A DNA stretch of 64,000 nt from the NCBI GenBank assembly GCA_942493245.1, contig OW818685.1, forward strand, positions 3,452,389-3,516,388, written 5' to 3'. The notes below the pieces were generated by a model. That model saw nothing but the letters and a program-made list of their open reading frames with translations. It did not search any database and had not been told where the DNA came from. Below, one piece after another: positions 23,857 through 41,335 of the stretch (position 1 is its first letter; the number at the start of each line of letters is the position of its first letter). The position numbers were made by a program, and so were the translations under genes. Origin of the DNA: an uncultured Candidatus Sumerlaeota bacterium (GTDB lineage Bacteria; Sumerlaeota; Sumerlaeia; UBA8349).

Positions 23857-25863
23857 TCACCGGGATTTCAGAAAACCGGCATCCCTCAAAACCTCGAGCG
23901 CGTCGGGAAGCCCATCCGGCGCACGCGAAACACCCAGTTCATAGACCGGCGCGTGGTCGGCCAGCAGACAACTTTCACGGAAAGCCCGCGCCAATCCACC
24001 CAGCGCCTCGCGCAATGGCTCATAGAGTTGGCCATACCAGCGCGGGGACAGTTCCGCAAGCGCGGCAGTGGGTTTCAACAGCCTGAGAGTCGCCGGACCT
24101 TCCTGAGGTTTTACGACGAAGACCGCCGTGAGCGGAATGCCGACAGGCGCATCCGGTGAAACAGGGGTCTGGAAAAGAGCCTTGTTCCACCTCGAGGCCT
24201 CGAGCGGAACCCGCTCGCCCGCACACATGCTGAAACTGCCCGGATCGAATTGCGTCTTGATGACCGGAAAACCCCGCGAGGCGAGAAACGGCGCGCGCTT
24301 CGAGTCGAAAACCAGGATGTCGTCATCCAGTACGGTCGCTCCCCGGGAGTGCAGCGCGCACGCCAGCGCCGTTTTGCCGGCTCGCGGAGGTCCCAGAAAC
24401 GCAAACGCGTCCTCGTTTCCCATGGCCACACACACCGCGTGGAAAATTGAAAGTCCGCGTTGATACAGCAGGACGGGTAACACCATCTCCGATAACATGA
24501 TGGAGAAATCCATGTTTCCTTCCGGGAGCGGGGTGTCGTACAAAATCTCGCGCCCCGCCCGCACGACGAACAACCCCCGCCCCGGAAACGCCAGATGCGT
24601 CTCATCCTCCGAGACAACCCGGACAAACGTTTTCGTCTCGTGGGGAAATGCGTATTTCAAATCTGCTCGCCGGATTTCCACATCCACACCCGATATTGCG
24701 CACGTGGGTACCCCCGGAAAACACCACTCGCTGTGAATCTGCAATCCATAGCAGAAGTAGGAATACCCGGCCTCCGTTTCCCTGTCCCCAACAGCCCCTT
24801 CCGCCCCGCAACCATCCGGAGTTGCCGTGTCCCCAATGGCAAGGATTTCGGCCTCCTGTTTTTGTATCAACTCCCGGACGCGATCCCGAAAGACAGCCAG
24901 CCCCCCCATGTCCTCCGGCAATCCCTGAAAAAACGCCTCGACAGCCGATGCCCGGCCAGAGAAAAGCTGCGAAGTCACAAAGGACACAAACGCCGTGAGG
25001 AGACGAGGGAACTCCACCGGTTCCAGAAATGCCGGCGCATGCGCCACGGCTTCGCGCAGAAAACGCTGGCCCAGGTTGGCCGCCTCGCCGGCATAGGCGC
25101 GGAACGCGCCATTCAGGGTACACTGCGCATAGGCCAACCCGCGCGCCCGCACGGCTTCTTCGGGCACATCGGACCGCCCGTAGTAGGCGTCCAGCACGCG
25201 TTTGCAGTTCATCATGTACCCGATGTGCAGGGCCGCCGAGCGCTCTTCATACATCCGGTACACGATGAGAACGTCGCGCACCCACGCCATGCGCCGGTTC
25301 GCGTGCGCCAGCCGAATCCAGAAATCGAAATCTTCGGCCAGACGCAATTCCGGATCGAACCACGGCTCGATGCCCTCCAGGGCGGAGCGGCGCAGCATGA
25401 CCCCCGACGGCAGGAAGGAACACCCCATCAGGCAGTTGGTCAACGTCAGTTCGCGCCCGTTCTCCCACGGTCGTATCGTGGCAAACACCTCGCCGGACTC
25501 TCCGGCGAGGTGTCCCCCGCAACCCACCATATCCACATCCGGATGGCTTTCGAGAAACGCCACCTGCTTCGCCAATCGCAGAGGCAACGCCAGGTCGTCG
25601 TCATCGAGCAGGGCGAGATACTTCCCTCTCGCTTCCCTCATGCCGGTATTGCGCGCCTGGCTCCGCTCGCCATGCTCCAGATGCAACACCCGCACCCGCC
25701 GGTCCCGCAAACCGTCCAGGAGCGCCCGCGTCTCGTCCCCAGACCCATCGTTCGCCACGATCAGTTCGAAGTCCTCGAATGTCTGCAGGAGGATACTGCG
25801 GACCGCCTCGGCCAGAAGGCTCGAACGATTGAACGTGGGAATCACGACGCTGACAAGAGGCAT
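23857..25863 (-). CDS. family 2 glycosyltransferase fused to a C-terminal HPr-kinase-like P-loop domain
   Basis: N-terminus VSVVIPTFNRSSLLAEAVRSILLQTFEDFELIVANDGSGDET with an acidic DDDD motif (GT2). C-terminal region has FHAVCVAMGNEDAFAFLGPPRAGKTALACALHSRGATVLDDDILVFD, resembling the HprK C-terminal kinase fold. Confidence 0.7.
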   Translation of the reverse strand: MPLVSVVIPTFNRSSLLAEAVRSILLQTFEDFELIVANDGSGDETRALLDGLRDRRVRVLHLEHGERSQARNTGMREARGKYLALLDDDDLALPLRLAKQVAFLESHPDVDMVGCGGHLAGESGEVFATIRPWENGRELTLTNCLMGCSFLPSGVMLRRSALEGIEPWFDPELRLAEDFDFWIRLAHANRRMAWVRDVLIVYRMYEERSAALHIGYMMNCKRVLDAYYGRSDVPEEAVRARGLAYAQCTLNGAFRAYAGEAANLGQRFLREAVAHAPAFLEPVEFPRLLTAFVSFVTSQLFSGRASAVEAFFQGLPEDMGGLAVFRDRVRELIQKQEAEILAIGDTATPDGCGAEGAVGDRETEAGYSYFCYGLQIHSEWCFPGVPTCAISGVDVEIRRADLKYAFPHETKTFVRVVSEDETHLAFPGRGLFVVRAGREILYDTPLPEGNMDFSIMLSEMVLPVLLYQRGLSIFHAVCVAMGNEDAFAFLGPPRAGKTALACALHSRGATVLDDDILVFDSKRAPFLASRGFPVIKTQFDPGSFSMCAGERVPLEASRWNKALFQTPVSPDAPVGIPLTAVFVVKPQEGPATLRLLKPTAALAELSPRWYGQLYEPLREALGGLARAFRESCLLADHAPVYELGVSRAPDGLPDALEVLRDAGFLKSR

Positions 25864-25986: not shown

Positions 25987-27288
25987 TCAGGAAACATCCG
26001 ATTCCAGCGACCAGGCCGAATCCATGTGGATGTGGCCGGGAGAGAAGCGCGACTTTTCCGAAGCCGAGACGGGGACCACGGTGAACCGGATGCCTTCGAT
26101 ACGGTCCACCACCTTCCCCTGGTAATCGAACGGAACCACATCGAGCATGTAACTTCCCGCCAGAAAGGGGTTCCGGGTCTCGATCCGGATGCAGTAATCC
26201 CGCCCCGGCACTCCATCGAAGTAGGAAGTCTCCGTGTGTGTACTGAGCATCGTGGACAACCGCACTCCGTCGGAATTGCGCAAAATGACCACCAGACCAA
26301 ACCGCCGGTCGGCGTTGGAAACCCGGTAGGAAAGGCGCAACGAGAACGGCTCGTCCACCAGGAGCGTATCAGTCCGCACGCCCTGCCGGTTGAGAATTTC
26401 GATGCGGAACACCTCGAACTCGGCCGGGTAAGTCTGGTGCATCGCAGGGGCGATCTCGACGTTGGGCGCCTGGTTGGGCAGCGTGGTCAAGTATTCATCC
26501 ACCACGTCCGCCGCCTCGCCCGCCCGCACCAGCTGTCCCCCTTTCAGGAGCAACGCCTTGCTGCACAACCGGCGGATGGCCTGCATGTTGTGCGAGATGA
26601 ACAGGACTGTCCGGCCATGCCCCACCACGTCCTGGATTTTCCCGAGGCACTTGGCCTGAAACTGGGCATCCCCCACAGCCAGAACCTCGTCCACCATCAA
26701 AATTTCGGACTCCAGGTGCGCCGCCACGGCAAAGGCCAGCCGCACATACATCCCGCTCGAGAACCGCTTGACCGGGGTGTCCAGAAAACGCTCGACCTCT
26801 GAGAACGCGACAATCTCGTCGAATTTCCGGGCGATCTCCGACTTGCGCATCCCCAGAATCGCCCCATTGAGGTAGATGTTCTCACGTCCGGTCAACTCGG
26901 GGTGGAATCCCGTCCCCACTTCGAGCAAAGACCGGACCCGTCCCCGGATCACGGCGCGCCCCTCGGTGGGCCAGGTCACCCGCGACAGAACCTTCATCAG
27001 CGTGGATTTCCCCGCGCCGTTCTGCCCGATGATCCCGAGCACTTCCCCCTTGCGGACCTCGAAACTTACGTCCCGCAATGCCCACAGAATCTCATCGTCA
27101 CCCGTCTTTTTCTCCGAAGCCACGCCCGGCTCTCCAACGGCCGGTGGCCGCACCCACTCCTTGAGACGGCGGCCCGCCTGACGCGGAAGATCCATCACCA
27201 TTTCGCGAAACGAACGCGTCAAATCCACATGGTGGCCCAGGTGGTATTGCTTGCTCAGGTGTTCGGCGGTGATGGCCAGGTCGCTCAT
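25987..27288 (-). CDS. polysaccharide export ABC transporter ATP-binding protein (Wzt/TagH-like) with a C-terminal extra domain
   Basis: Walker A GQNGAGKST, signature FSSGMYVRLAFA, Walker B ILMVDEVLAVGD; about 170 additional C-terminal residues, as in Wzt proteins with a glycan-binding domain. Confidence 0.85.
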   Translation of the reverse strand: MSDLAITAEHLSKQYHLGHHVDLTRSFREMVMDLPRQAGRRLKEWVRPPAVGEPGVASEKKTGDDEILWALRDVSFEVRKGEVLGIIGQNGAGKSTLMKVLSRVTWPTEGRAVIRGRVRSLLEVGTGFHPELTGRENIYLNGAILGMRKSEIARKFDEIVAFSEVERFLDTPVKRFSSGMYVRLAFAVAAHLESEILMVDEVLAVGDAQFQAKCLGKIQDVVGHGRTVLFISHNMQAIRRLCSKALLLKGGQLVRAGEAADVVDEYLTTLPNQAPNVEIAPAMHQTYPAEFEVFRIEILNRQGVRTDTLLVDEPFSLRLSYRVSNADRRFGLVVILRNSDGVRLSTMLSTHTETSYFDGVPGRDYCIRIETRNPFLAGSYMLDVVPFDYQGKVVDRIEGIRFTVVPVSASEKSRFSPGHIHMDSAWSLESDVS

Positions 27289-27306: not shown

Positions 27307-28179
27307 TCAGATAATATCGGCAAACGTGCGTTCCATTTTCTTGAAATAAAAAAGGCCGGTCACCAGAATCGCCACCGCAACGGGAGTTCCGACGGCCAGA
27401 AGAAACCAGGGCGGGTCGGCCGTGTGTCCCGCCGCGCGAATCGTCTCCGAGAACAGACACCAGCGGAATCCCTCCACCACCCCCGCCATCGGGTTGAGCG
27501 CGTACACGTAGCGAAGCCAGCCATACTCGCGCAACGCGCTGAACGGGAAAATCACCGTGCAGTACATCCAGATCTGCATGATGAAGGGAAGCAGATACCG
27601 GATGTCCCGGTAGCGCACCTGCAGGGCGGAAAAGAGGAACCCCGTTCCCAGCGCCACGATAAAAGCGACGGCCATCAGGACCGGCAGAAACAACGCCATG
27701 ACCCCCACGGGCGTTCCAAAATACCCGAGCAGCGGCCCCAGCAGGACGAACGCGATCGCGAAGTCGAGCAGGCTCGCCAGGCAGGGCACCGTCGGAATAA
27801 TCACGCGCGGGAAATACACTTTGGTCAAAAAAGAGGTATTCGAGAGCAGACTGCCGCTGGACATGGAGAGCGAGTTGGCAAAATACGTCCACGGCAACAG
27901 GTTGACGTAATAAAAAACAGGACCGGGCAGTCCCGACGTGGAGAGGTTGGCCACCTTCTTGAACACAAAGGAAAACACCACCATCTGCAGGAAAGGAACC
28001 AGCACCGCCCACGCCACCCCCAGCAGCGTCTGGCGGTACTTCACCTTCAGGTCGCGCCACGTCAGGAAGAAAAGCAACTCGCCGTACTGCCACAGTTCTT
28101 TCCAGTCCACGCTCAACAGCCCACGCGGCGGCTCGACAATCAGGACCGGTTCTTCGATTTCCCGCGGCAACGATGGCAC
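27307..28179 (-). CDS. ABC-2 type polysaccharide export permease (Wzm/TagG-like)
   Basis: Six predicted transmembrane segments, an ABC-2 permease pattern; 18-bp gap to the downstream ATPase gene. Confidence 0.8.
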   Translation of the reverse strand: MPSLPREIEEPVLIVEPPRGLLSVDWKELWQYGELLFFLTWRDLKVKYRQTLLGVAWAVLVPFLQMVVFSFVFKKVANLSTSGLPGPVFYYVNLLPWTYFANSLSMSSGSLLSNTSFLTKVYFPRVIIPTVPCLASLLDFAIAFVLLGPLLGYFGTPVGVMALFLPVLMAVAFIVALGTGFLFSALQVRYRDIRYLLPFIMQIWMYCTVIFPFSALREYGWLRYVYALNPMAGVVEGFRWCLFSETIRAAGHTADPPWFLLAVGTPVAVAILVTGLFYFKKMERTFADII

Positions 28180-28387: not shown

Positions 28388-30387
28388 CTGGTGGCGCAGC
28401 GAAGCCGCAACCCATAAAACCGCGAAAGGCGCGAAAAACGCGAAATTCGGCTTTCCCGTTTTTCCGTACTACATCTCGCAGAACCAACGCAAACCACGAT
28501 GATCTCATGAACAGAAAGAATGGAATGTGTAAACCCCTTAACGCAAAGACGCCAAGACGCAAGGACGCAGAGGGTTCCGGATGGCGAGGACGGCGCGATT
28601 CAAAACTCGAACCGAAAATAGGGATGGAATGTGCGGACGACAAAAACTGAAAATCCATGAACCTAAAAACCGCAGTTGACTCTTGCTCTCGTTCTGCAAG
28701 TGTAGCAAACTGAGTGCATGAACGAGAAAAATCTCTTCCCAACCCCTCACCCATTGGGTGACTCCAATGCGCCCGAGATCGAATCTCTGGTGGTGGACAC
28801 TTTTGGCGGCCGGGTCCACGTGGAGTGGGCGCCCCAGGCGGCCGTGACGCCTCTGGGGCAATTGCCGTTCTTCATCGAGTTCCTCAAGACGGCCCATCTT
28901 TTTGATGCCTGGGTTCAGGATTGCCCGCTGGAGTACCACAGCCCCAATGCCCCGGCCAAGCGCGACATTCTGGGGACGACTCTGCTGTGTCTGCTGGCGG
29001 GTCACACGCGCTACGCTCACATCGCGGCGATTCGGGCCGATGGGGTGAATCCGGAATTGCTCGGCATGTCGAAGGTGGCCAGCGAGGACTCGGTGCGCCG
29101 GGCGTTTCAGGCCGTGGATGGGGAGGAGTGCGCGCTCTGGCAAACCCATCACTTGCGGCGCTGTTACGAGGCTTTGTTGTGCGAGCCGTGGATTCTGGAT
29201 CTCGACACGACCGTCAAGCCGCTCTACGGCCGTCAGGAAGGGGCCGTGAAGGGCTACAACCCGCAGAAACCGGGCCGTCCCTCGCACACGTACCACACCT
29301 ACTTTCTGGCCAACCTGCGCCTGGTGCTCGACGTCGAGGTGCAGTCGGGCAACCGGACGGCGGCGAAGTACACGAGCCCCTCGTTCTTCTCCTTTCTCGA
29401 CACCCTGTCCCCCGAACAGCGGCCGGTCTTCGTGCGCGGCGACTGTGCCTTCGGCAACGACGCGGTCATGCGCGAGTGCGAGAAACGGGGACAGCCTTAC
29501 TTGTTCAAGTTGCGCCAGACTCAGAAAGTACGGGGGCTGATCGAGAAACTCTTTGCCCGCGAGGTGTGGGAGGACGCGGGCCAGGGCTGGGAGGGCGTGG
29601 AGTCGAAGTTACGCCTGAGCGGCTGGGAGCGCGAGCGCAAGGCCGTCGTCCTGCGTCGGCGCCTGAAAGGCGATCTGCTTTTGGCCAACCGCCCACAACC
29701 AGGACAGTTGGAACTGGCTTTTGTCGAGACACTCGAGACGGTGGGCCCGTACGAGTACGCCGTACTGGTGACGGACCTCGCGGGCGAAATCCTCACGTTG
29801 GCGCAGCACTACCGGGACCGGGCGGACTGCGAGAACGTCTTCGATGAGTTGAAGAACCAGTGGGGCTGGGGCGGGTTCACGAGTCGGGACCAGAAACGCT
29901 GCCAGATCATGGCGCGCCACACGGCTCTGGTCTACAACTGGTGGTCGCTGTTCGCGCGCCTGGCCCTGCCCGACAAACACCACGAGGCGCAGACCAGCCG
30001 CCCGCTTCTTCTGCACGCCGTGGGCAAGCAGACGCAACACGCCGGTCAGACCACGCTGACCCTGACGAGCCTGCATGCCGAGTCGGCCTCCATCCGCAAA
30101 GTTTTGCGCGGTTTGACGGGCTTTTTCCAGCACCTTCGCAAGGCTGCGGAGCAGTTGGATTGGACTGAGCGCTGGCGGCTGATTCTGAGTCGCGCCTTCG
30201 TCGTCTTTCTGAAAGGAAGACTCCTCGGCGTACCGGGAAAACCCGCCCTCGGATGCACTTGAGCGACAAACACCGGCGCCCAAGGCCCTTGGGCAGGGTT
30301 CAACTGCTGTTTTTAGGATGAATCTTTGCATCTCTGCACCTTTGCGACTTTGCGTTAAAATTGGTTGCGGCTTTGCTGCGCCAGGAA
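28388..30387 (+). mobile_element. insertion sequence, IS1380/IS4-like, with long imperfect terminal inverted repeats
   Basis: Single DDE transposase ORF flanked by CCTGGTGGCGCAGCGAAGCCGCAACC... (28388 onward) and its reverse complement ...GGTTGCGGCTTTGCTGCGCCAGG (ending about 30387). A second IR-like copy TTAACGCAAAGACGC sits at about 28538, and the inner segment CCTAAAAACCGCAGTTGAC (28662) matches the reverse complement of 30300-30320. The left end is about 200 bp longer than the right. Confidence 0.75.
28718..30262 (+). CDS. DDE transposase (IS1380/IS4-like)
   Basis: 514 aa; ..KGYNPQKPGRPSHTYHTYF.., ..VFVRGDCAFGNDAVM.., and C-terminal ..YRDRADCENVFDELKNQWGWGGF.. (Y-R-E-K signature region). 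Confidence 0.8.
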   Translation: MNEKNLFPTPHPLGDSNAPEIESLVVDTFGGRVHVEWAPQAAVTPLGQLPFFIEFLKTAHLFDAWVQDCPLEYHSPNAPAKRDILGTTLLCLLAGHTRYAHIAAIRADGVNPELLGMSKVASEDSVRRAFQAVDGEECALWQTHHLRRCYEALLCEPWILDLDTTVKPLYGRQEGAVKGYNPQKPGRPSHTYHTYFLANLRLVLDVEVQSGNRTAAKYTSPSFFSFLDTLSPEQRPVFVRGDCAFGNDAVMRECEKRGQPYLFKLRQTQKVRGLIEKLFAREVWEDAGQGWEGVESKLRLSGWERERKAVVLRRRLKGDLLLANRPQPGQLELAFVETLETVGPYEYAVLVTDLAGEILTLAQHYRDRADCENVFDELKNQWGWGGFTSRDQKRCQIMARHTALVYNWWSLFARLALPDKHHEAQTSRPLLLHAVGKQTQHAGQTTLTLTSLHAESASIRKVLRGLTGFFQHLRKAAEQLDWTERWRLILSRAFVVFLKGRLLGVPGKPALGCT

Positions 30388-30640: not shown

Positions 30641-31429
30641 TCAGTTCGAGACCGACGCTTTTCTACTCGCTCCGGACTTCGACCCGGAATCGGCCGCTTT
30701 TTCCGCCTTTGCGGCGGCCTTCGGCTCAGCTGGCGCCGCGAGGGCGCCCTTCGCGTCATCGTCCGCGGATTTGGGAGCGCTGTCGGCCTTGGCGGCTTTT
30801 TCGGCCGCCGGTTTAGCCTCGTCGGCAACCGGTTTCTTTTCACCCTTGTCCACCGCCGGGGTCTCTCCAATTCCGGCAAAAGGATCACTCTTATTGCCCG
30901 AGGTCGTAGAATTCATCTTAGGCCCACGCACCTTGACTTTATTGCCCCCCTTCTCCGTCTGGGTCATGGTAATCTCTTCCCCGGCCATGGTCATCCCCTT
31001 CTGCAACACGACAGGACTTCCCGTAAGAACCGTTCTTTTCTCCTCCACATAGGAACGCAATTCCAGACAAGTGGCCTTGACGTCCTTGCTGCGAACCTTC
31101 ACACGATGCCCCGAGACCGTTGATTTGGCGATCAGACACTTTTTGGCCGCGTCAAAGATCAACAGGTCGCACTGCAAGTCCAGATCCTGCGAGACCAGAA
31201 TCACATTATCCGTCATTTGAAATTGCGAGACTTCACCCTTTTCATCGGTCTCGATGTTCAATTCCCCATCCGCCTTCAAATCCTTCAAACCGGGCAACAG
31301 TTTTTCCGGACTGAAAGACGCCGCGCCCCCTTCTTCATCCTGCGCCCAAACTGTCACAGGAGCCAATCCAGCCGAAAACAGACAACCGGCAATCAACACT
31401 CCCCCACAGAACTCCGCGAATCGTTTCAT
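30641..31429 (-). CDS. LptA/OstA-like periplasmic LPS transport protein with an Ala/Lys-rich C-terminal tail
   Basis: Signal peptide, OstA-like beta-jellyroll region, low-complexity C-terminus; sits downstream of the lptC-like gene. Confidence 0.55.
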   Translation of the reverse strand: MKRFAEFCGGVLIAGCLFSAGLAPVTVWAQDEEGGAASFSPEKLLPGLKDLKADGELNIETDEKGEVSQFQMTDNVILVSQDLDLQCDLLIFDAAKKCLIAKSTVSGHRVKVRSKDVKATCLELRSYVEEKRTVLTGSPVVLQKGMTMAGEEITMTQTEKGGNKVKVRGPKMNSTTSGNKSDPFAGIGETPAVDKGEKKPVADEAKPAAEKAAKADSAPKSADDDAKGALAAPAEPKAAAKAEKAADSGSKSGASRKASVSN

Positions 31430-31505: not shown

Positions 31506-32318
31506 TTATTTCCTGACTTTGGATTTGGCCTTCGACGCGGGTTTCTTGACCCCCACACTGTCGGCTTTCGTTTCGGCGGCGGGAGCCGCCTTTGGACTTT
31601 CCACTGCGGCTGGCTCTCCAGTCGGAACCGTATTTTCCGTGTTTGTCGTCGAATTTTCTATTATAAAGTTGATCGGACCGGTGCAATGGATTTTTCGGAG
31701 GGATTGGTTCGTCTTGAACCCCTTGGCTTCGATTACGACCTTCCCCCCCCCGTCGGCGGGCATGCTCAACTCGACATCGCCGCCCGCGCTCACAATTGAA
31801 ACCGTTGTCTCCTCGTCCGCTCCCACCTGAGCGACGCCCGTGGGAACATTGAGGTAAAACAGACTGGGCGCCTTGATGGTTTTTCCATTGGCGTTGATGT
31901 CCACTCCCCCCTCGAGGTAAACGTCGCCACTGCGGGGACGCGCTCCCGTCATGTACTCCGGCACCACCTGCTTTTTCGTGGGACTCTTGGTGTAAAAAAC
32001 GCCAGAACCACTGCGAAACAACATCTCCTGTGTTCCGGAGGTAAAGTGCATCCCCACTTGATTGAGTGTCGCCAAGTTCTGGGCCAAGTCCATCGTGGCC
32101 GACGTGGCCTGCAGCACATTGGTGGTTTTCAGTCCGGTGAACGTCCGAACCTCTAACCCTTTGATCTCAAACGCGCCCATTTGTTCCCGTTCATCTTTTT
32201 TTTCCTGCATCGCCGGCTCTTCCTGGGTCCGGCACGCCCCCAGAGAAAACGCCAGAGCGCCCGCCATCAGGCAGGCCCAGCCGTATTTCCAGAAACTCAG
32301 TTGTCTCATGTTACACAT
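31506..32318 (-). CDS. LptC-like/OstA-like lipoprotein
   Basis: Lipobox-like N-terminus (LAFSLGAC), OstA-like fold region, Lys/Ala-rich C-terminal tail; position between the acyltransferase and lptA-like genes. Confidence 0.45.
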   Translation of the reverse strand: MCNMRQLSFWKYGWACLMAGALAFSLGACRTQEEPAMQEKKDEREQMGAFEIKGLEVRTFTGLKTTNVLQATSATMDLAQNLATLNQVGMHFTSGTQEMLFRSGSGVFYTKSPTKKQVVPEYMTGARPRSGDVYLEGGVDINANGKTIKAPSLFYLNVPTGVAQVGADEETTVSIVSAGGDVELSMPADGGGKVVIEAKGFKTNQSLRKIHCTGPINFIIENSTTNTENTVPTGEPAAVESPKAAPAAETKADSVGVKKPASKAKSKVRK

Positions 32319-32489: not shown

Positions 32490-33449
32490 TCAGGCGTCCA
32501 CCCGTATCGGGGGCGGCCCGTCCTCGGGGCGGTGCCGCCAGCGCCGGTGCATCCACATCCACTGTTCCGGATGGCGACGCACCACGTCTTCGATTCGATC
32601 GGTAAAGGACTGCGTGATTTCGGCAATCCATTCCGATTCGTCCTTCGCCTCCGGTTCGGGCAACGGTTTTATTTCCAGGACAGAGCGATTCGGATCCTCC
32701 GGGTCAAACGAGGCAAACGCGGTAAAAACCCGGGCGCGCCCCATGCGGGCCAGACGGCCGATGCCGGTCTGGGTCCAGGCGGGGCGGCCAAAGAAGTTGA
32801 CGAAAATCCCCTCGCCTCGCGTCGTGTCCATGTCGCCCACCACGCCCAGCATGTTGCCCGAGCGCAGAAACCGGACATAATCGCGCCCGGTTTTACCCCG
32901 CAGAAAAACCTTCTCACCACACAGACTGCGCTGCTCCAGAAGGAGGCGTTCGAGGTGGGGGTTGCTCAATTCCCGCGCCACCACGCCCACCTCACAGGGC
33001 AGACTGCGCACAAAAGGGACCACGCCCAGTTCCCAGTTGCCGAAATGCGCCGTGACCATCACAATCCCGCGCCCCTGGGCGATGACCTCACGCACCTGCT
33101 CCATCCCCTCGACCCGCATGCCCTGCAGAATCTCGTCCACGCGCCCGGACGACACATAGGCCGCCTCGACCACCCCCAGGCCCGCCGTGCGGAACACCCC
33201 GCGGGCGATTTCCAGACGCTGCGCTTCCGAAAGTTCGTTCCCGTAGGCCAGTTGCAGATTTTCGAGGATTCGCTGGCGGTCGAGATGCGCCAGGTAATAC
33301 ACCATCGAACCTAAGAAAGCCCCTATCCGGCGCGCAACGGATAAGGGCAAACGCACCATCACGATCCGAACCGCGATGGTCAGATAATACACCATTTTGT
33401 GGCGAACCTTGCGAGTCCGCTGTTTCAACTTTTTACGAAACGCGCTCAA
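32490..33449 (-). CDS. lipid A biosynthesis (Kdo2-lipid IVA) acyltransferase, LpxL/HtrB family
   Basis: 319 aa with an N-terminal membrane anchor and a lysophospholipid-acyltransferase-like core (..VTAHFGNWE..); overlaps the kdsC stop by 4 nt, suggesting translational coupling. Confidence 0.7.
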   Translation of the reverse strand: MSAFRKKLKQRTRKVRHKMVYYLTIAVRIVMVRLPLSVARRIGAFLGSMVYYLAHLDRQRILENLQLAYGNELSEAQRLEIARGVFRTAGLGVVEAAYVSSGRVDEILQGMRVEGMEQVREVIAQGRGIVMVTAHFGNWELGVVPFVRSLPCEVGVVARELSNPHLERLLLEQRSLCGEKVFLRGKTGRDYVRFLRSGNMLGVVGDMDTTRGEGIFVNFFGRPAWTQTGIGRLARMGRARVFTAFASFDPEDPNRSVLEIKPLPEPEAKDESEWIAEITQSFTDRIEDVVRRHPEQWMWMHRRWRHRPEDGPPPIRVDA

Positions 33450-34009
33450 CAGCCCGGTGACTCGCTTTCCTGAATCTCAATCCGGAGGTAGTTGGCCACC
33501 AGTTCGGCCCACTGCCCCTGTGCCCGCAACAGCGCTTCGGCCACCTCGCGCACGGCGCCCTGCCCGCCACTGCTGCGCGTCACTCCGTGTACCCGTTCGA
33601 GCACTTCGGGCTGCGCCTCGGGAACGGAGAGCGCCAGACCGGCCCGCAGGAGGACCGGCAAGTCTATCAGATCGTCCCCCATGTACGCCATCTCATCCGG
33701 AGCCACCCCCAGCCGCACCAGCATCGCCTCGACCACCGGCCATTTGCGCAGCGCGCGCTGATGCACCTCTTCCACGCCCAGATCAGCCGCCAATTGCGTC
33801 ACAGCCAGCGACTCATGGCCGGAGACGAAAGCGACCCGAATGCCCGCGCGCAACAGGTACTTGATGCCGGCCCGGTCGCGCACATTGAAACACTTGAGCG
33901 GAACCTCGCCCCCCAGGTAAACCCCACCGTCGGTCAGGACGCCATCTACGTCCAACACCAATAACCGAACGCGCCGCAATCTGTCCTGGAGAAGAGTTTC
34001 GTCAAGCAT
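33446..34009 (-). CDS. kdsC: 3-deoxy-D-manno-octulosonate 8-phosphate phosphatase (HAD family)
   Basis: 187 aa, LLVLDVDGVLTDGGVYL...MGDDLIDLPVL; KdsC-like length and motifs. Confidence 0.8.
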   Translation of the reverse strand: MLDETLLQDRLRRVRLLVLDVDGVLTDGGVYLGGEVPLKCFNVRDRAGIKYLLRAGIRVAFVSGHESLAVTQLAADLGVEEVHQRALRKWPVVEAMLVRLGVAPDEMAYMGDDLIDLPVLLRAGLALSVPEAQPEVLERVHGVTRSSGGQGAVREVAEALLRAQGQWAELVANYLRIEIQESESPGC

Positions 34010-34043
34010 CGAGGTTCCGGCGCTGGGACGCAGGTCACAGGCT

Positions 34044-35675
34044 CTATTTCTTTCGGGTTTTTTTCAGGTCTTCCAACTGTTGGGCCAAGTCGGGACGCAT
34101 GACCTGACTCGACGAGACAAAACCGAACGAGGACATAAGACTTTCGGAAGAGGACCGTCCGAGCGGTTGATCCACCAGACGCGCCACCGTTTCTTCCGTC
34201 CCGGACTCCGGTTCATCCGGCGCGCCGGGCTGCCAGGCCTTCTGCGTCATGATCCCGACTCGCTTTTTCCGTTTGGCTCCCACTTCCTGAGCCTCGGGCG
34301 GGGCCTGCCCCGCAGGCGCTTCAAAAATCTCACGCTCCGCAAACAACCACCCCACCCGCATCCACCGTTCGTATTCGCGGGGCGTGGCCAGAGTGACCCG
34401 GGGCGTCTGGACCACATTCGAGCGGCAAATGCAGAGAAATTCGCCTTCCGAACTCAACACCCCCAATTCGGCGCACCAGTAGCGACCGGGGTCGGGCAGA
34501 TGCTGGTACCACGAGGAAGTCTGGTCGTCAATCGCCGTTTCAATCACCCGCTGAGCGTTCTGGCCATCGAAGTCGGGCACGTCGGTTACATCGTGCCAGC
34601 GCAGCATGAGCCGTCCCTGATGCGCCCCACGCGGAATCCAGAAACGGTCGCGGGTCTTCGCGTCAATCTCCCAGTACACGAACACCCACTCCGGGTCGCG
34701 CACCAAAAGCCGGACATAGGTCTCGTCGTAGAAATCCGGAAGTCCATATCCCGCCGGAGGCGTCGGATAGAGGATCTCGCAATCGCGACTCACATCGAAC
34801 TTTTTCGATTCGACCTCGACCTGCGGATTGTCCACCGACACGGGCGGTTTTTCGACGTCCAGAACTTCGACAGGCCCCCCCGTTTTCCGCGACGTCGCCT
34901 TTTTCAGCGCGGCTTTGGGGACCGCGGCCTTTCGGGCCGTAGTCGTTTTCGGGAGCACCTTCTCTACGGCAGGAGCAGAGGCGCTCAGAATCAGTTCTTC
35001 GGGCTTTTTCGAGACAGAAACGGTTTTCTTGACGGCGCTTTTGGGGGCCACCGTCTTTTTGACGGCAGGTTTCACAGAAGCGGTCTTGGCGGGATCGGTT
35101 TTCAGCGCCGCGGATTTCTGGACGGCCACCTTCTTGACCACCGCCTTGGAGGCGCCCGTTTTTTTAACAGCCGTCTTTTTTCCCACGGTCTTTTTCGCCA
35201 CTGTTTTCTTAACGGCTACTTTCTTTTCCACAGCCTTGGGGGCCACCGATTTTGCGACCGCTTTCTTTTTTTCGGTCGTTTTTTTCGGAGCGGTTTCTAC
35301 GGATTTTTCCGTCACGGTTTTCTTCGTGACGGCTTTTTTTGCCACAACCTTTTTGACTGCGGGTTTTGCGGCAGACGTTTTCTTAGCGGTCGTATTTTTC
35401 GGAATAGGCTCTTCGGACTTTTTCGAAGCGGTGGTCTTTGTGGCGGGCGTCCCGGTCGAAAGCGCAGCTTTTTTCACCGTTTTGGAAACAGAGGACTTAG
35501 CCGCCTCCGTCTTCTTTGCCTCAACGGGTTCCTTGGCCACTTTCAGGGCCGTTTTTTTGACTGTCCTGGGGGTGAGCGATTTCACTACCGCCGTCTTTTT
35601 GACCGAGGTTTTCACGCTCTCCGTTTTTTTAGAAACGGCTGCTTTTGCGGTGGTTTTCTTTGTACTGATAACCAT
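34044..35675 (-). CDS. histone H1-like Lys/Ala-repeat protein with a C-terminal DUF4912 domain
   Basis: About 300 aa of KKAVAKK/KKTVAKK-type repeats followed by a globular C-terminal domain (..LLVRDPEWVFVYWEIDAKTRD...GRLMLRWHDVTD..). ATG at 35675 is preceded by a GGAGGGG ribosome-binding site. Confidence 0.7.
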   Translation of the reverse strand: MVISTKKTTAKAAVSKKTESVKTSVKKTAVVKSLTPRTVKKTALKVAKEPVEAKKTEAAKSSVSKTVKKAALSTGTPATKTTASKKSEEPIPKNTTAKKTSAAKPAVKKVVAKKAVTKKTVTEKSVETAPKKTTEKKKAVAKSVAPKAVEKKVAVKKTVAKKTVGKKTAVKKTGASKAVVKKVAVQKSAALKTDPAKTASVKPAVKKTVAPKSAVKKTVSVSKKPEELILSASAPAVEKVLPKTTTARKAAVPKAALKKATSRKTGGPVEVLDVEKPPVSVDNPQVEVESKKFDVSRDCEILYPTPPAGYGLPDFYDETYVRLLVRDPEWVFVYWEIDAKTRDRFWIPRGAHQGRLMLRWHDVTDVPDFDGQNAQRVIETAIDDQTSSWYQHLPDPGRYWCAELGVLSSEGEFLCICRSNVVQTPRVTLATPREYERWMRVGWLFAEREIFEAPAGQAPPEAQEVGAKRKKRVGIMTQKAWQPGAPDEPESGTEETVARLVDQPLGRSSSESLMSSFGFVSSSQVMRPDLAQQLEDLKKTRKK

Positions 35676-35680
35676 CCCCT
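34830..35680. repeat. coding low-complexity tandem repeats (Lys/Ala/Thr/Val-rich)
   Basis: Repetitive DNA encoding KKTVAKK-like units; the antisense translation is equally repetitive. Confidence 0.5.
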
Positions 35681-35754
35681 CCGCCCTTCCCGGCTCTGGA
35701 GAAGCCGCCCGCCCGTTCCAAGCCTTCAACCTGCGCCTCAACCGGTGCGGACTA

Positions 35755-36633
35755 TTACGCCTCTTCTTCTCCGATCGGATCGTGCTTCTGGTTCGTCAAA
35801 ATAGCCAAAAGACTCGCCAGTGTCGCTTTCATCTGCCCCCGATGCACAATAAGATCAATAAATCCGTGGTCCTGCACAAATTCAGCGCGTTGGAATCCCC
35901 GCGGCAGAACCTGGCGGATTGTCTGCTCGATCACACGCGGACCGGCAAAATAGACCATCGCGCCCGGCTCGGCGATAATCAGATCGCCCAGCGAAGAGAA
36001 CGAAGCGGCCACTCCCGCGCCCGTCGGATCGGTCAACACCGGCACATAGGGAATTCGCGCCTGACGCATTTTGGCAACCATGCCGCTCGTCTTGGCCATC
36101 TGCATGAGGGAAAGAATCCCTTCCTGCATGCGGGCGCCCCCGGCGGCACAGAAGATAACGGCCGGTTTGCGGGTTTCCAGACTGTGCTCGAACACGCGCG
36201 AGACCTTCTCGCCCACCACAGACCCCATACTGGCGGCGATGAACTGGGCGTCCATGAACCCCAGCGAGGCCTCGATCCCATAGATCTTGCCATAGCCGGT
36301 CAAGATCGCTTCGGTCAGTCCCGTGCGCTTCTGATATCGGGCAATCTGATCGGGATAGGAACGGATATCGTGGAAATTCAAGGGATCGGCTGTCTTGAGA
36401 TTTTCGTGAGTCTCGACAAAAGTGCCCTCATCCACCACGCTCGAAATCCGATCCACCGCCGTCATCTTCAAGTGGTAGTCGCACTTCAGGCAGACCAGCA
36501 GATTGCGCTCGAGATCGCGCGTGAGCATGATAATGCCGCATTTCGGGCATTTCGTACAAAGCCCCACGGGCACACGATCCTGCGGGATGGGCGCTTTGAT
36601 GGTTGAGTATTTCTGTCGCGCGAACCAGGACAT
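35755..36633 (-). CDS. accD: acetyl-CoA carboxylase carboxyltransferase subunit beta
   Basis: N-terminal zinc ribbon CTKCPKCGII...CLKCDYH and a carboxyltransferase domain. Confidence 0.9.
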   Translation of the reverse strand: MSWFARQKYSTIKAPIPQDRVPVGLCTKCPKCGIIMLTRDLERNLLVCLKCDYHLKMTAVDRISSVVDEGTFVETHENLKTADPLNFHDIRSYPDQIARYQKRTGLTEAILTGYGKIYGIEASLGFMDAQFIAASMGSVVGEKVSRVFEHSLETRKPAVIFCAAGGARMQEGILSLMQMAKTSGMVAKMRQARIPYVPVLTDPTGAGVAASFSSLGDLIIAEPGAMVYFAGPRVIEQTIRQVLPRGFQRAEFVQDHGFIDLIVHRGQMKATLASLLAILTNQKHDPIGEEEA

Positions 36634-36811: not shown

Positions 36812-37024
36812 CTATTTCGCGAGAACCGTCTTCACCGTCCGTTCCCATTCTTCTTCCGTCAGAACGTCCGACTCATCCACCAGCATCACCGGAATCCCAT
36901 CCCGCACCTGATAACGGCGACGACACTCCCCATTGCCGCAGCAAAGCGTTTCACCCAGTTCCACCACCCGCGTTTTGCACAACGGGCACGCCAGAATTTC
37001 CAACAAGGTCGCATCAATCGGCAT
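36812..37024 (-). CDS. Trm112 family protein
   Basis: 70 aa, LLEILACPLCKTRV...RDGIPVMLVDES, the Trm112/UPF0434 pattern. Confidence 0.75.
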   Translation of the reverse strand: MPIDATLLEILACPLCKTRVVELGETLCCGNGECRRRYQVRDGIPVMLVDESDVLTEEEWERTVKTVLAK

Positions 37025-37162: not shown

Positions 37163-38050
37163 TCATCCAGCGTCGCTAATTCGACGCGAGCCGGAAACAG
37201 CCTCCGGCAGCCGAAAAAGCCGGACCGTGTTGGCCCAGAGCGCTTCCATCAGGCTTTCTTCTGGAATGGCCCGTTCCGCCGCCAGCCGCGCCGCCGCGTA
37301 AGGCATCCAGGCCGGCTCATTGCGCGCCCCCCGTTTGGGAACCGGCGCCAGGTAGGGCGCATCGGTCTCGAGCAGGAGAGATTCCAGAGGAACTCCCCGC
37401 GCCGCCTCACGCCCCAAGTCGTTTGTTTTGAACGTAAGCGTCCCCCCGAACCCGAGAGAAAGCCCCAGATCCACGATCTCCCAAGCCTGCTCAGGGGTTC
37501 CACTGAAACAATGGACCACCCCTCCCACAGCCCCCACATCCTGTTCCCGTAGCAAATCCATGAACAGATCGTAGGCGTCGCGGCAATGCAGGACGAGCGG
37601 CAAGCCCACTTCGCGCGCCACCTCGACCTGCGCCTGAAAAGCGCGAACCTGCGCCTCGCGAGGCGCAAAATCGTAATAGAAATCCAGCCCGGCCTCTCCC
37701 ACCGCGACAAAGCCGGAGTTCCCGGAAGAAGTCACCGGTCCTGTTCGCAACAAATCCCGCAACTCGCGCGCGTGCGCGTCCGTCCATTCGGACGCATGGT
37801 GCGGGTGCATGCCCGCCGTGGCATACAATCCCTCACGCGAACGGGCCAGTTCGAGGGCCTCACGGCTTGCGGCCAAACAGTCACCCACCACCACGATCCG
37901 TTCGACCCCGGCCTGCCGGGCACGCTCAATTACCGCGTCTCGGTCCTCTTCAAAGCGGCGATCGGTCAAGTGGCAATGGGAATCTATCCAGCGCAACGGA
38001 GAAAGAGAAGGGGAAGGACTGCAAGCGGACATCGTGAAAGACAATCTCAT
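37163..38050 (-). CDS. TatD family metal-dependent hydrolase (DNase)
   Basis: WIDSHCHLTD near the N-terminus, later ..GEAGLDFYY.., ..HCFSG.., ..LLLETDAPYL... Start set at internal ATG 38050 (alternative 38032); the ORF is open from a GTG at 38221. Confidence 0.75.
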   Translation of the reverse strand: MRLSFTMSACSPSPSLSPLRWIDSHCHLTDRRFEEDRDAVIERARQAGVERIVVVGDCLAASREALELARSREGLYATAGMHPHHASEWTDAHARELRDLLRTGPVTSSGNSGFVAVGEAGLDFYYDFAPREAQVRAFQAQVEVAREVGLPLVLHCRDAYDLFMDLLREQDVGAVGGVVHCFSGTPEQAWEIVDLGLSLGFGGTLTFKTNDLGREAARGVPLESLLLETDAPYLAPVPKRGARNEPAWMPYAAARLAAERAIPEESLMEALWANTVRLFRLPEAVSGSRRISDAG

Positions 38051-38326
38051 CGGTTCTTCGAAGAATGACTCTTTTCCCCCATCGGGAGGGAATCGAGTGG
38101 GTTCTTTTGTACCACACCCGGGGCGGGAAAGAAACCCCGGAATCGGGCCTCTTTCGCGCAGCCTCATGGAAAAAGATCGTCTCCCGGATTCTTCTTGCCA
38201 AGTGTCCCCACCCTTTGACACAATATCGAGTAGAATCCTGTCGTATTTTTACTCGGCCATTTTGGGTGATTTTCGGCGGCGGGTTTCTCGGAATCGTCAC
38301 CATCTCTATTAGGAAGCAGACGAAAA

Positions 38327-39466: not shown

Positions 39467-41335
39467 TTATCCTTTTCCCATCAACTGTTTGTAGAGGAAA
39501 TAACCCGCGGCCAGAATAATCAGAACCACAATGGCGAGTTTGCCGGCCTTACCCGGATCGGCGCTCTCTTTTACCTCCGCTTTCGTGGAACCTTTCTCCG
39601 CGGTCTTCGAGGCTGTTCTGGCGCCTCCCAACCGGGCACGGTTCTCTCCCGCAGGGTCGAATTTGGCGCGCAGTTCCTCCAACACATGCGCCACGGGGGG
39701 ATCGAGTGAGACTTCGTGCGCTTTCTGCTCAAATGACTCGTAGGCCTTCCGAGTGTTCATAATTTGAAGCGCTTTGGCCGCAGCCACACGCACGTTCTTA
39801 TCCGGATCATGCTCGACGGTCTTTAACAGGAGGGGGATGAGAGGCTCAGCCGCCTCCCCACTGCGCCCGATGCCATGCAGCGCCACACTGCGCACCACGG
39901 TGTCTCCCACTTCCACGCATTTCTGCAATTTGGGCAAGGCCGACCGCAATCCCAGTTCACTCAGGATCACAACCGCCACCTGCAACAAGGGGCGGGGACA
40001 GGTTTCCACCTCGATCTGTTTGCACACTTTCCCGCGATCCAGTTTGAGCAACTCGCGCATCATGTACCGGAACATTTCTTCGTCCGTCTCGATGGAACCG
40101 ACCGAAAGGAGCGGATTCACCCCCAGCATGTCCACATGCTTCACCATCCAGTCGATCGCCAGGCGTTTCACACGGCTGTCCACCTGCGCTTCATAGAGAC
40201 TCAGGATTCCGGGGACATCGCTTTGAGCAAAAAGCGACTTGAAAGCGGCCGTCGCCTGAGAGGGATTCGAGAACGATTGGCGCCGCATCGGGGACACATC
40301 CGCCGTGGAGTGCGGCGCTTCGATCACCACTCCAGACTCTTGAATCTCCGATCCTTCCACAGGAGAACTCTCGTCCGAAACGATTTCCAAGCCCGGAATC
40401 AGATCCTCCATCCCCGGTTCGAGAATGAAAACGGGCTCATCGGCCGGGACAGGGGCAGACTTCGGAGTGTCCGGCGGTCTCTCCTGACGGACATCAGACA
40501 TGGCCACCGGACTGTCTCCCATCGAGAAAACCCGCGCCTCGGGCAACTCGACCCCATCCAGTCCGGAAAAGTCGAGGGTGGAAACAGGCGCCTCCAGTTT
40601 GACTGGCGTCAGTGGAGCGGACACCGGAACCGGTTCCGGTTGAGGCAATTCCAGATCGTCGAACGACATTTCGGGAATCGGAACACTTTCGACACTCAAT
40701 GCTTCCGGTTCCACGGGTTTTTCAGCACCCGCAGCTGGACCGGACCGAGGCTTTTCATCCAGGCGCACGTCGAGCAACTCGATTCCATCGAACTGAGACA
40801 AATCGGACTGCCGTTCTGGCACTTTCGGTTCAGGCGCCGACTTTACGCCGGAGACAGAACGAGCGGGCAGGGTCACCAGATCATCGAGAGAAAGTTCGGG
40901 AATTGGCACGCTGTCTGCCGGGTTAAAACTCGGCGATTCCTCGGGTGTGGCAACAGCAGGAACAAGGACTTCTCCTGAGAATCCGGGCGTTTCACCCGAT
41001 TCAGACAATTGCATTTCGGGCAAATCGAGACCATCGAGCATGTCGAGCCGGACCTCGGACGCGCTCGGTTTCACGTCCTCAGGGGTCGGTTCCGGCTGAG
41101 GCGCCCGCGTCTCACCCAGATCCTTGAGGAGTTCCTCGAACGAAAATTCGGAAAATGAAATATCGGTGAATTCTTCCTCCGCCACGGTCTTCGGTTCTTC
41201 GGCTGCAGGCTTGTCGGATGAAGGCGACAGATCATCCAGTGACATTTCGGGAATCGGAATTCCCTCCAGATCAAACGGCTGCCCCGGCTTCGAATCCGGA
41301 TTCTGTTGAGAAGGAGTCTTTTCCGGCTGTTTCAT
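39467..41335 (-). CDS. HEAT-repeat protein with an acidic repeat-rich N-terminus and a C-terminal membrane anchor
   Basis: Repeated (I/V)PIPE(M/L)S(L/F)DDL motifs, HEAT/PBS-lyase-like repeats (..NVRVAAAKALQ..) and a terminal hydrophobic helix (LAIVVLIILAAGYFLY). Confidence 0.6.
   Translation of the reverse strand: MKQPEKTPSQQNPDSKPGQPFDLEGIPIPEMSLDDLSPSSDKPAAEEPKTVAEEEFTDISFSEFSFEELLKDLGETRAPQPEPTPEDVKPSASEVRLDMLDGLDLPEMQLSESGETPGFSGEVLVPAVATPEESPSFNPADSVPIPELSLDDLVTLPARSVSGVKSAPEPKVPERQSDLSQFDGIELLDVRLDEKPRSGPAAGAEKPVEPEALSVESVPIPEMSFDDLELPQPEPVPVSAPLTPVKLEAPVSTLDFSGLDGVELPEARVFSMGDSPVAMSDVRQERPPDTPKSAPVPADEPVFILEPGMEDLIPGLEIVSDESSPVEGSEIQESGVVIEAPHSTADVSPMRRQSFSNPSQATAAFKSLFAQSDVPGILSLYEAQVDSRVKRLAIDWMVKHVDMLGVNPLLSVGSIETDEEMFRYMMRELLKLDRGKVCKQIEVETCPRPLLQVAVVILSELGLRSALPKLQKCVEVGDTVVRSVALHGIGRSGEAAEPLIPLLLKTVEHDPDKNVRVAAAKALQIMNTRKAYESFEQKAHEVSLDPPVAHVLEELRAKFDPAGENRARLGGARTASKTAEKGSTKAEVKESADPGKAGKLAIVVLIILAAGYFLYKQLMGKG

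Follow-up and report, generated by a model that had tools for sequence, protein, structure and literature searches.

Architecture of a DUF4912 Protein With a Polybasic Tail

We analyzed a gene in a 64,000-nucleotide window (the whole stretch of DNA under study, positions 3,452,389 to 3,516,388 of contig OW818685.1) from an uncultured Candidatus Sumerlaeota bacterium. The gene (34044..35675, minus strand; stop codon 34044-34046) encodes a 543-aa protein in which a DUF4912 domain stands between a polybasic tail and a C-terminal extension. The full open reading frame (ORF; 34044..35741) yields 565 aa from a TTG codon and 543 aa from the ATG at 35675. We place the start at 35675 because a purine-rich, Shine-Dalgarno-like stretch read from the sequence (GGAAGGGCGGAGGGG, 35676..35690, minus strand) lies directly 5' of this ATG and because orthologues begin at the equivalent position, with N-termini (MGTT.KKTT) that align there. 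The nearest named homologues are Candidatus Sumerlaeota proteins with 58-71% identity. No transmembrane segment or signal peptide was found in the 543 residues (maximum 19-residue hydropathy 0.95), and the product is a soluble cytoplasmic protein. It does not appear to be a defense or phage gene, since comparison with PADLOC and PHROGs gave zero matches.

Two long plus-strand ORFs antisense to this gene and to the adjacent accD (34080-35804, 574 aa, and 34828-36606, 592 aa) were rejected as artefacts that mirror the AAG/AAA-rich coding strand. Their only cluster partners are the equivalent antisense ORFs of three related loci (L002-L004), and a gene caller that favors the longest ORF selects them over the real gene both there and in the window.

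The first 300 residues (34776..35675, minus strand) form a polycationic tail that was delimited by composition, periodicity, structure prediction and a match to the HC2 family. The tail repeats a degenerate [AV]xKKT pentapeptide to an extent that far exceeds chance: its lysine positions have a period of five residues (autocorrelation z = 7.4, 6.1, and 5.9 at lags 5, 10, and 15), and KK dipeptides number 23, compared to 14.4 ± 2.4 in shuffled sequences. Lysine makes up 24.7% of the residues, alanine and valine 15.3% each, threonine 12.7% and proline 6%, and only one residue is aromatic. With 78 lysines and arginines against 23 aspartates and glutamates, the net charge is +55. Residues 1-280 of the full-length AlphaFold2 model have predicted local distance difference test (pLDDT) values of 43-53 and no secondary structure, so that the tail is predicted to be disordered.

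The Pfam family HC2 (PF07382) matches residues 77-201 (51.4 bits, E = 2e-13; gathering score 40), and the native tail alone scores 55 bits. Composition alone does not explain the match, which follows the order of the KK-x3 pattern: four shuffled copies of the tail had no HC2 match. The scores for the NCBIfam models of Hc2 (NF038052, 41.8 bits; cutoff 135) and of Burkholderia H1-like proteins (NF038053, 26.7 bits; cutoff 80) are far below their cutoffs. Short-period repeats can converge, and the HC2 match therefore does not establish homology; by sequence, the tail appears to resemble H1-like and Hc2 proteins without belonging to those families. The likeness to histone H1 and AlgP proposed in the initial annotation thus holds at the Pfam threshold, but not at the NCBIfam cutoffs, and the tail lacks KPAA repeats. 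In sequence and profile searches of the PDB, the tail matched solely the K/A-rich N-termini of actinobacterial SigA/HrdB.

Compared to orthologues whose DUF4912 domains are 88-91% identical and free of gaps, the tail has 50-56% identity and 45-168 gap columns. Relative to the orthologue at locus L001, the domain has a dN/dS of 0.05, the tail one of 0.26 and the C-terminus one of 0.25. From these identities, gaps and ratios, the tail is genuine coding sequence under relaxed constraint, in which composition and periodicity are kept and the exact sequence is not; its ORF is preserved in the orthologues. Except for that of L059 (310 residues), it is the longest tail among the genome loci examined.

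The repeat DNA had also been put forward as a likely site of length variation. Tail lengths do differ among orthologues, by the 45-168 gap columns given above, but the tail-coding DNA is not tandemly repetitive. Tandem Repeats Finder reported only two arrays, each of about two copies of 15 bp. The direct repeats are irregularly spaced, do not exceed 28 nt and share no more than 82% identity. With repeats this short and degenerate, length variation by strand slippage is unlikely, and the differences among orthologues are ordinary indels.

The DUF4912 domain (PF16258) occupies residues 316-429 (34389..34730, minus strand), as seen by Pfam (110.4 bits, E = 8e-32, cutoff 29.4; profile positions 1-112 of 118), AlphaFold2 and Foldseek. 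The fusion of a Lys/Ala-rich, H1-like repeat region to DUF4912 was therefore described correctly at the outset; the protein does not, however, end in this domain, which is followed by 114 more residues. Neither of the two refuting outcomes named in the initial annotation was observed, as the tail is preserved as coding in orthologues and the domain clearly matches DUF4912. Across 45-76 homologues, D327, P328, W335, and W438 are invariant and Y316, R326, W330, Y334, R359, W389, Y390, G405, S419, and P425 are at least 90% conserved, and all of these residues are present in the window protein, as are the family motifs RDPEW, YWE, SWY, and C/ARSN..PR. The domain is rich in aromatic residues (20 per 140), several of them conserved family-wide. 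An AlphaFold2 model built from a 76-sequence alignment shows residues ~315-455 as a seven-stranded beta-sandwich plus a hairpin (pLDDT >90). Foldseek against the PDB returned FN3 domains as top matches (E ~1e-4, TM-score to target 0.5-0.7), and the model thus describes a generic FN3/immunoglobulin (Ig)-like beta-sandwich. No solved DUF4912 structure was found by sequence or profile search of the PDB.

In the AlphaFold2 models, the C-terminal extension (residues 430-543, 114 residues; 34047..34388, minus strand) comprises a short beta-hairpin, a helix at 460-472 (or 460-478) and, beyond a linker modeled with low confidence, a terminal helix at 528-542 that ends in KKTRKK. This extension is kept in the closest orthologues only (66-75% identity). 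Many other relatives have a Glucodextran_B-like Ig domain at this position, which the window protein, with its helical extension, lacks.

Distribution and Architectures of the DUF4912 Family

A phmmer search with the domain against 1.84 billion cluster representatives matched 3,395 of them at E ≤ 1e-3 and 1,029 at E ≤ 1e-10. The gene is thus an entry point to a family of thousands of sequence clusters without known function: where the literature searched mentions the domain, no function is assigned to it, and the available passages of a large alpha-glucan review do not mention it. From the best 150 matches we took the 123 full-length, single-domain representatives and scored a basic N-terminal tail where at least 60 aa contained at least 20% K+R with a net charge of at least +15. 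Such a tail occurs in 62 of the 123, and in another 37 the N-terminus is shorter than 60 residues. Several of the remainder start with a Rho_N-like motif, and Pfam confirmed Rho_N in all three that were tested (P0244, P0305, and P0339). By these sequence comparisons, the window protein is an ordinary and not an unusual member of a large uncharacterized family in which the tail is a common accessory and whose proteins carry the database label "DUF4912 domain-containing protein".

Rho_N-DUF4912 proteins, flagged as Rho-like, are known from cyanobacteria (PMC13613805). They share with the window protein the DUF4912 core and a nucleic-acid-binding-type module in the same N-terminal position, whereas Pfam finds no Rho_N domain in the window protein. 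One protein, P0051, combines Rho_N with a K-rich linker and DUF4912 and is encoded upstream of a GH57 gene.

A second departure from the simple architecture is found in giant proteins with 3-10 tandem DUF4912 domains, two of which carry cyanobacterial names (Gloeocapsa and Limnoraphis). Most of the giants examined (P0232, P0234, P0273, P0281 from Gloeocapsa, P0292, and P0354) start with a signal peptide and a PstS-like, phosphate-binding domain (PF12849), after which come a single transmembrane helix and 3-6 DUF4912 repeats; P0292 starts within the PstS-like domain and has no signal peptide. The Limnoraphis protein (P0227) has 10 repeats, begins inside a repeat and has no PstS domain. Basic residues, marking the positive-inside side, follow the transmembrane helix, and the DUF4912 domains of the giants are therefore expected to be cytoplasmic, since the repeats come after them. 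This architecture is undescribed in the literature searched and links the family to phosphate sensing or membrane anchoring. At two unrelated loci (L061, 9017-12918, Brachyspira; L064, 1-3533, a JGI metagenome contig), a pstSCAB-phoU operon for phosphate transport is found no more than a few kb from the DUF4912 gene; it is absent from the other 65 of 67 loci. This adjacency may be coincidence or an echo of the PstS fusions.

Family-Wide Association With GH57 Branching Enzymes

We scanned one genome per species and obtained 60 loci encoding relatives, one per genome. In 40 of them, a gene of the glycogen branching enzyme type starts within 300 bp downstream on the same strand, and in 29 of those 40 its start is within 25 bp of the DUF4912 gene or overlaps it. 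The partner encodes 530 aa with a Glyco_hydro_57 domain (PF03065) and a branching-enzyme C-terminal domain (PF09210, BE_C), and we refer to it as GH57. Among loci with a basic-tailed DUF4912 protein, 19 of 29 have this neighbor. These loci come from Sumerlaeota, Planctomycetota/Brocadiaceae, Acidobacteriota, Bacillota, Eisenbacteria, Ignavibacteriales, Solirubrobacterales, and others. Independent loci agree: at L064 four consecutive genes encode a CBM48 protein, a GT5 glycogen synthase, a DUF4912 protein with an HC2 tail and the GH57 enzyme; at L062 and L063, a protein with Rho_N, a K-rich region and DUF4912 is followed by GH57. A GH15 (glucoamylase) gene lies divergently upstream at eight loci. 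The family pattern is thus a constant beta-sandwich, encoded directly upstream of GH57 and preceded by varied anchor-like modules.

Apparent DUF4912-GH57 fusion proteins of 617-717 aa at seven loci were rejected. These are adjacent genes in high-GC DNA, where the ORF calls ran through GH57 out of frame.

Gene Context in Sumerlaeota

The window gene departs from this typical family context, and its usual GH57 neighbor is replaced by kdsC-lpxL-lptA. Directly upstream, after a 79-bp gap, lies accD (35755..36633, minus strand; TIGR00515, 374 bits, above cutoff), and 34 bp downstream is the gene for a KdsC-family phosphatase (33446..34009, minus strand; TIGR01670, 133 bits, above cutoff). The next gene, for an LpxL-family lipid A acyltransferase (32490..33449, minus strand; PF03279, E = 5e-54; NCBIfam matches below the equivalog cutoffs), overlaps the kdsC stop by 4 bp. 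It is followed on the same strand by an ORF that occupies the lptC position (31506-32318) and matched no family, and by a weakly LptA-like ORF (30641-31429; PF03968, E = 5e-5; TIGR03002, 21.8 bits, below cutoff). The placement between accD and kdsC-lpxL-lptA made in the initial annotation is thus correct, as are its kdsC and lpxL labels, whereas lptA is weakly matched and lptC is assigned by position only. Locus L001 keeps both of these last two ORFs (57% and 61% identity), and at L002 only the LptA-like ORF was detected (30% identity). Further along the minus strand are genes for Wzm (27307-28179), Wzt (25987-27288), and GT2 (23857-25863). A consensus scan found no minus-strand terminator-like site within 33450-36633, from accD to lpxL, and a promoter-like site lies upstream of accD. 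Co-transcription of the DUF4912 gene with accD-kdsC-lpxL is plausible from this layout.

The C-terminal ends of the LptA-like and lptC-position proteins are likewise tails of low complexity, rich in Lys, Ala, Glu, and Pro (for example, ...AEPKAAAKAEKAADSGSKSG... and ...KKPASKAKSKVRK). Charged tails of low complexity may be a habit of the source genome rather than something special to the DUF4912 protein.

The order accD-DUF4912-kdsC-lpxL-x-x-wzm-wzt-GT2 is complete, and free of a transposase, at L066 and L067; the accD-to-lptA portion is common to the window and L001, and L002 is similar. An upstream accD is also found next to the DUF4912 gene at all of L001-L004, L066, and L067. The association with the lipopolysaccharide (LPS) cluster is confined to the window, L001, L002, L066, and L067, and the arrangement differs in the other Sumerlaeota and in all other phyla. 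The embedding in an LPS operon reported in the initial annotation is therefore real locally but confined to one Sumerlaeota subclade, while the neighbor conserved across phyla is GH57.

A second, different juxtaposition with LPS/O-antigen genes occurs in a sister Sumerlaeota clade (L005, 8886-12370; L008, 7940-11665; L009, 2489-3394), where a gene for the ABC ATPase Wzt of O-antigen export directly follows the DUF4912 gene. At L005 and L008, Pfam confirms Wzt_C, the next gene encodes a large methyltransferase, and no Wzm was found beside Wzt among the neighbors examined. The L009 contig ends inside the Wzt-like ORF, which is assigned by clustering only. In one further Sumerlaeota clade, the downstream gene encodes AhpC.

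In a neighbor-joining tree of the domain, the Sumerlaeota sequences form one clade, with one locus per genome. Members adjacent to GH57 are both basal in this clade (L012 and L014) and nested within it (L006, L007, L010, and L011), and the accD-linked, Wzt-linked, and AhpC-linked clades are derived. This distribution suggests that GH57 adjacency was ancestral in Sumerlaeota and was lost in the clade of the window. Because GH57-adjacent members are both basal and nested, the most economical reading would be that the window gene is a relocated orthologue of the GH57-linked genes. Its position among accD, kdsC, lpxL, and lptA is most likely a lineage-specific relocation with co-transcription and no functional tie to LPS.

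Proposed Role and Alternative Explanations

We propose that the protein is an adaptor between a polyanion, for instance the nucleoid, on one side and alpha-glucan granules or machinery on the other, a reading to which we give a probability of roughly 0.4 and which draws on analogy to other granule systems. The disordered cationic tail of about 300 residues would bind the polyanion, whether nucleoid DNA, RNA, or polyphosphate. The DUF4912 beta-sandwich would be the constant module that binds alpha-glucan machinery or the glucan itself; this is proposed because its conserved and often overlapping downstream partner is GH57, with glycogen synthase or GH15 sometimes near. The variable N-terminal module would serve as the anchor: the polybasic tail in this protein, Rho_N/SAP-like domains in further lineages and, in the cyanobacterial giants, the PstS-like ectodomain with its transmembrane helix. 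The window protein would thereby tether glycogen synthesis or granules to the nucleoid or to another polyanion, as PhaF, PhaM, and AlgP do for their own cargo.

In those systems, the H1-like tails of PhaF and PhaM tether polyhydroxybutyrate granules, and that of AlgP polyphosphate granules, to the nucleoid, while in PhaH a helix-hairpin-helix DNA-binding domain replaces the H1-like tail in the same role (PMC9239181, PMC13052382). This substitution parallels the exchange of tail and Rho_N in the DUF4912 family. Like PhaF, PhaM, and AlgP, the window protein joins a disordered polylysine tail to a separate cargo-side domain, and its tail has the same net charge (+55) as AlgP. It differs from them in that the tail is N-terminal rather than C-terminal, the folded part is a beta-sandwich rather than a phasin or helical domain, and the putative cargo is alpha-glucan; there is no sequence homology. 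The repeats also differ, being [AV]xKKT here and KPAA/AAKP in AlgP and PhaF (AlgP features: PMC9239181). In a review of organelle positioning, the word "glycogen" appears nowhere in the text and no glycogen tether is named (PMC13052382).

Several observations weigh against this adaptor role. GH57 homologues are missing from the 64-kb window (best tblastn E = 0.24) and likewise from L066 and L067, orthologous loci of 20 kb each. A GH57 gene may lie elsewhere in the source genome; a search with a Sumerlaeota GH57 query gave 8,000 scored candidates, all at E ≤ 1e-60, and the best 120 listed included none from it. Several Sumerlaeota place the DUF4912 gene beside LPS/O-antigen genes, in the two arrangements described above, and a lineage-specific glycan role other than glycogen is possible in this phylum. 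The tree behind the relocation scenario is a neighbor-joining tree without support values. Glucan binding by DUF4912 is proposed from the neighborhood of GH57, GlgA, and GH15, and gene adjacency does not discriminate between enzyme, polymer, and some other partner. When the DUF4912 alignment was compared as a profile with the CBM48 protein of L064, the probability was 0.2, which lends no support to a relationship with glycogen-binding modules, and the Foldseek matches are generic FN3 domains, not carbohydrate-binding modules. Finally, the PstS fusions and the pst operons near the genes at L061 and L064 point to phosphate.

Generalized to the family, the proposal would make DUF4912 the cargo module of an unrecognized, widespread class of glycogen granule or branching-enzyme adaptors, whose interchangeable anchors place synthesis on the nucleoid or the membrane. 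We regard this broader version as speculative and on balance somewhat unlikely. If DUF4912 is a glycogen tether, it would explain how glycogen synthesis is organized in many uncultured phyla and in cyanobacteria; the gene is of moderate interest, mainly because of this family-level hypothesis.

An alternative that we consider unlikely, though it survives better than the others, is a general nucleoid-associated protein of the H1/Hc2 kind, in which the tail condenses DNA and DUF4912 only oligomerizes. The HC2 match above the gathering score (51-55 bits against 40), with its dependence on residue order, agrees with such a role, as do the charge of +55, the 5-residue KK periodicity, and the Rho_N/SAP-like nucleic-acid-binding modules that relatives carry in the tail position. 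The observations that bear on putative DNA binding or condensation by the window tail are its charge and predicted disorder. Chlamydial Hc2 and bacterial H1-like proteins (PF07382, NF038052, and NF038053) have Lys/Ala-rich, short-period repeats too, but they consist of such sequence entirely, whereas the window tail is fused to a folded domain and is rich in Val and Thr, not in Ala, Arg, or Pro. Scores far below the NCBIfam Hc2 and H1-like cutoffs argue against this alternative, and so does the family pattern: roughly one in three close representatives has an N-terminus of fewer than 60 residues, and loci of Planctomycetota, Brocadiaceae, and Bacillota encode short acidic N-termini and are nevertheless GH57-linked. 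The tail is moreover the least conserved part of the protein (50-56% identity, with large indels), and the conserved part is a beta-sandwich with a metabolic context.

It is improbable, in our estimate, that the protein is an accessory factor of LPS or outer-membrane biogenesis acting with kdsC, lpxL, lptC/A, and wzm/wzt, for example as a cytoplasmic glycan- or lipid-binding adaptor. The local layout speaks for it (same strand, gaps of 79 and 34 bp, no minus-strand terminator-like site from accD to lpxL), as does the accD-to-GT2 order, which is complete at L066 and L067 and partial in the window and L001, with L002 similar; so does the position directly upstream of Wzt at L005, L008, and L009, with the methyltransferase beyond it at the first two. 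This context is, however, restricted to Sumerlaeota subclades, with GH57 or AhpC downstream in other Sumerlaeota, and the family is abundant where the neighbor is GH57, including in Bacillota. The protein has no signal peptide or transmembrane segment, and the presence of accD, which is no LPS gene, makes the cluster a mixed one. Thus, the position in the LPS operon should not be used to assign an envelope function to the window gene.

We likewise see little chance of a polyphosphate- or phosphate-linked function similar to that of AlgP, in which the tail would bind polyphosphate granules and DUF4912 would be tied to phosphate homeostasis. The net charge equals the +55 reported for AlgP, which is located at polyphosphate granules (PMC9239181), the 3-6 DUF4912 repeats of cyanobacterial giants are joined in one protein with a PstS-like domain and a transmembrane helix, and a pstSCAB-phoU operon adjoins the DUF4912 gene in Brachyspira (L061) and at L064. 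Pst adjacency, however, amounts to 2 of 67 loci against 40 of 60 for GH57, the tail has no KPAA repeats, and genes for a polyphosphate kinase, a polyphosphate phosphatase, or a CHAD protein were not noticed among the annotated neighbors, which were not searched systematically for them.

We also consider it improbable that the protein binds RNA and influences translation or the termination of transcription by way of its disordered basic region. This role is suggested by analogy with Pseudomonas aeruginosa PhaF, in which such a region binds RNA and activates translation (PMC12818456), and with cyanobacterial Rho_N-DUF4912 proteins flagged as Rho-like with unverified function (PMC13613805). Against it, the window protein has no RNA-binding or ATPase domain, a Rho-like protein of this kind alone is unable to terminate transcription (PMC13613805), and the gene context gives no pointer to RNA metabolism.

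Additional Features of the Window

Rfam and tRNA scans of the window returned nothing. Between the LptA-like gene and wzm, a plus-strand gene (28718-30262) encodes a 514-aa DDE transposase (PF13701/PF01609). At the orthologous loci L066 and L067, this interval (~510 bp in L066) contains no called gene, and because of this the transposase looks like an insertion sequence that has split the LPS/O-antigen cluster in the source genome.

Upstream of accD, the minus strand encodes TatD (37163-38221) and, between tatD and accD, a 70-aa Trm112-like zinc-ribbon ORF (MPIDATLLEILACPLCK..., 36812-37024) that is assigned by position. L066 and L067 hold a 70-aa gene of the Trm112p family (Pfam) at the same place, and an ORF of this size is easily missed at the usual length cutoffs. 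Further upstream, a 622-aa protein (39467-41335, minus strand) carries several copies of a [VI]PIPE(M/L)S(L/F)DDL motif in its N-terminal half, which is acidic and rich in proline; HEAT repeats (PF13646) come next, and a hydrophobic segment lies at the C-terminus.

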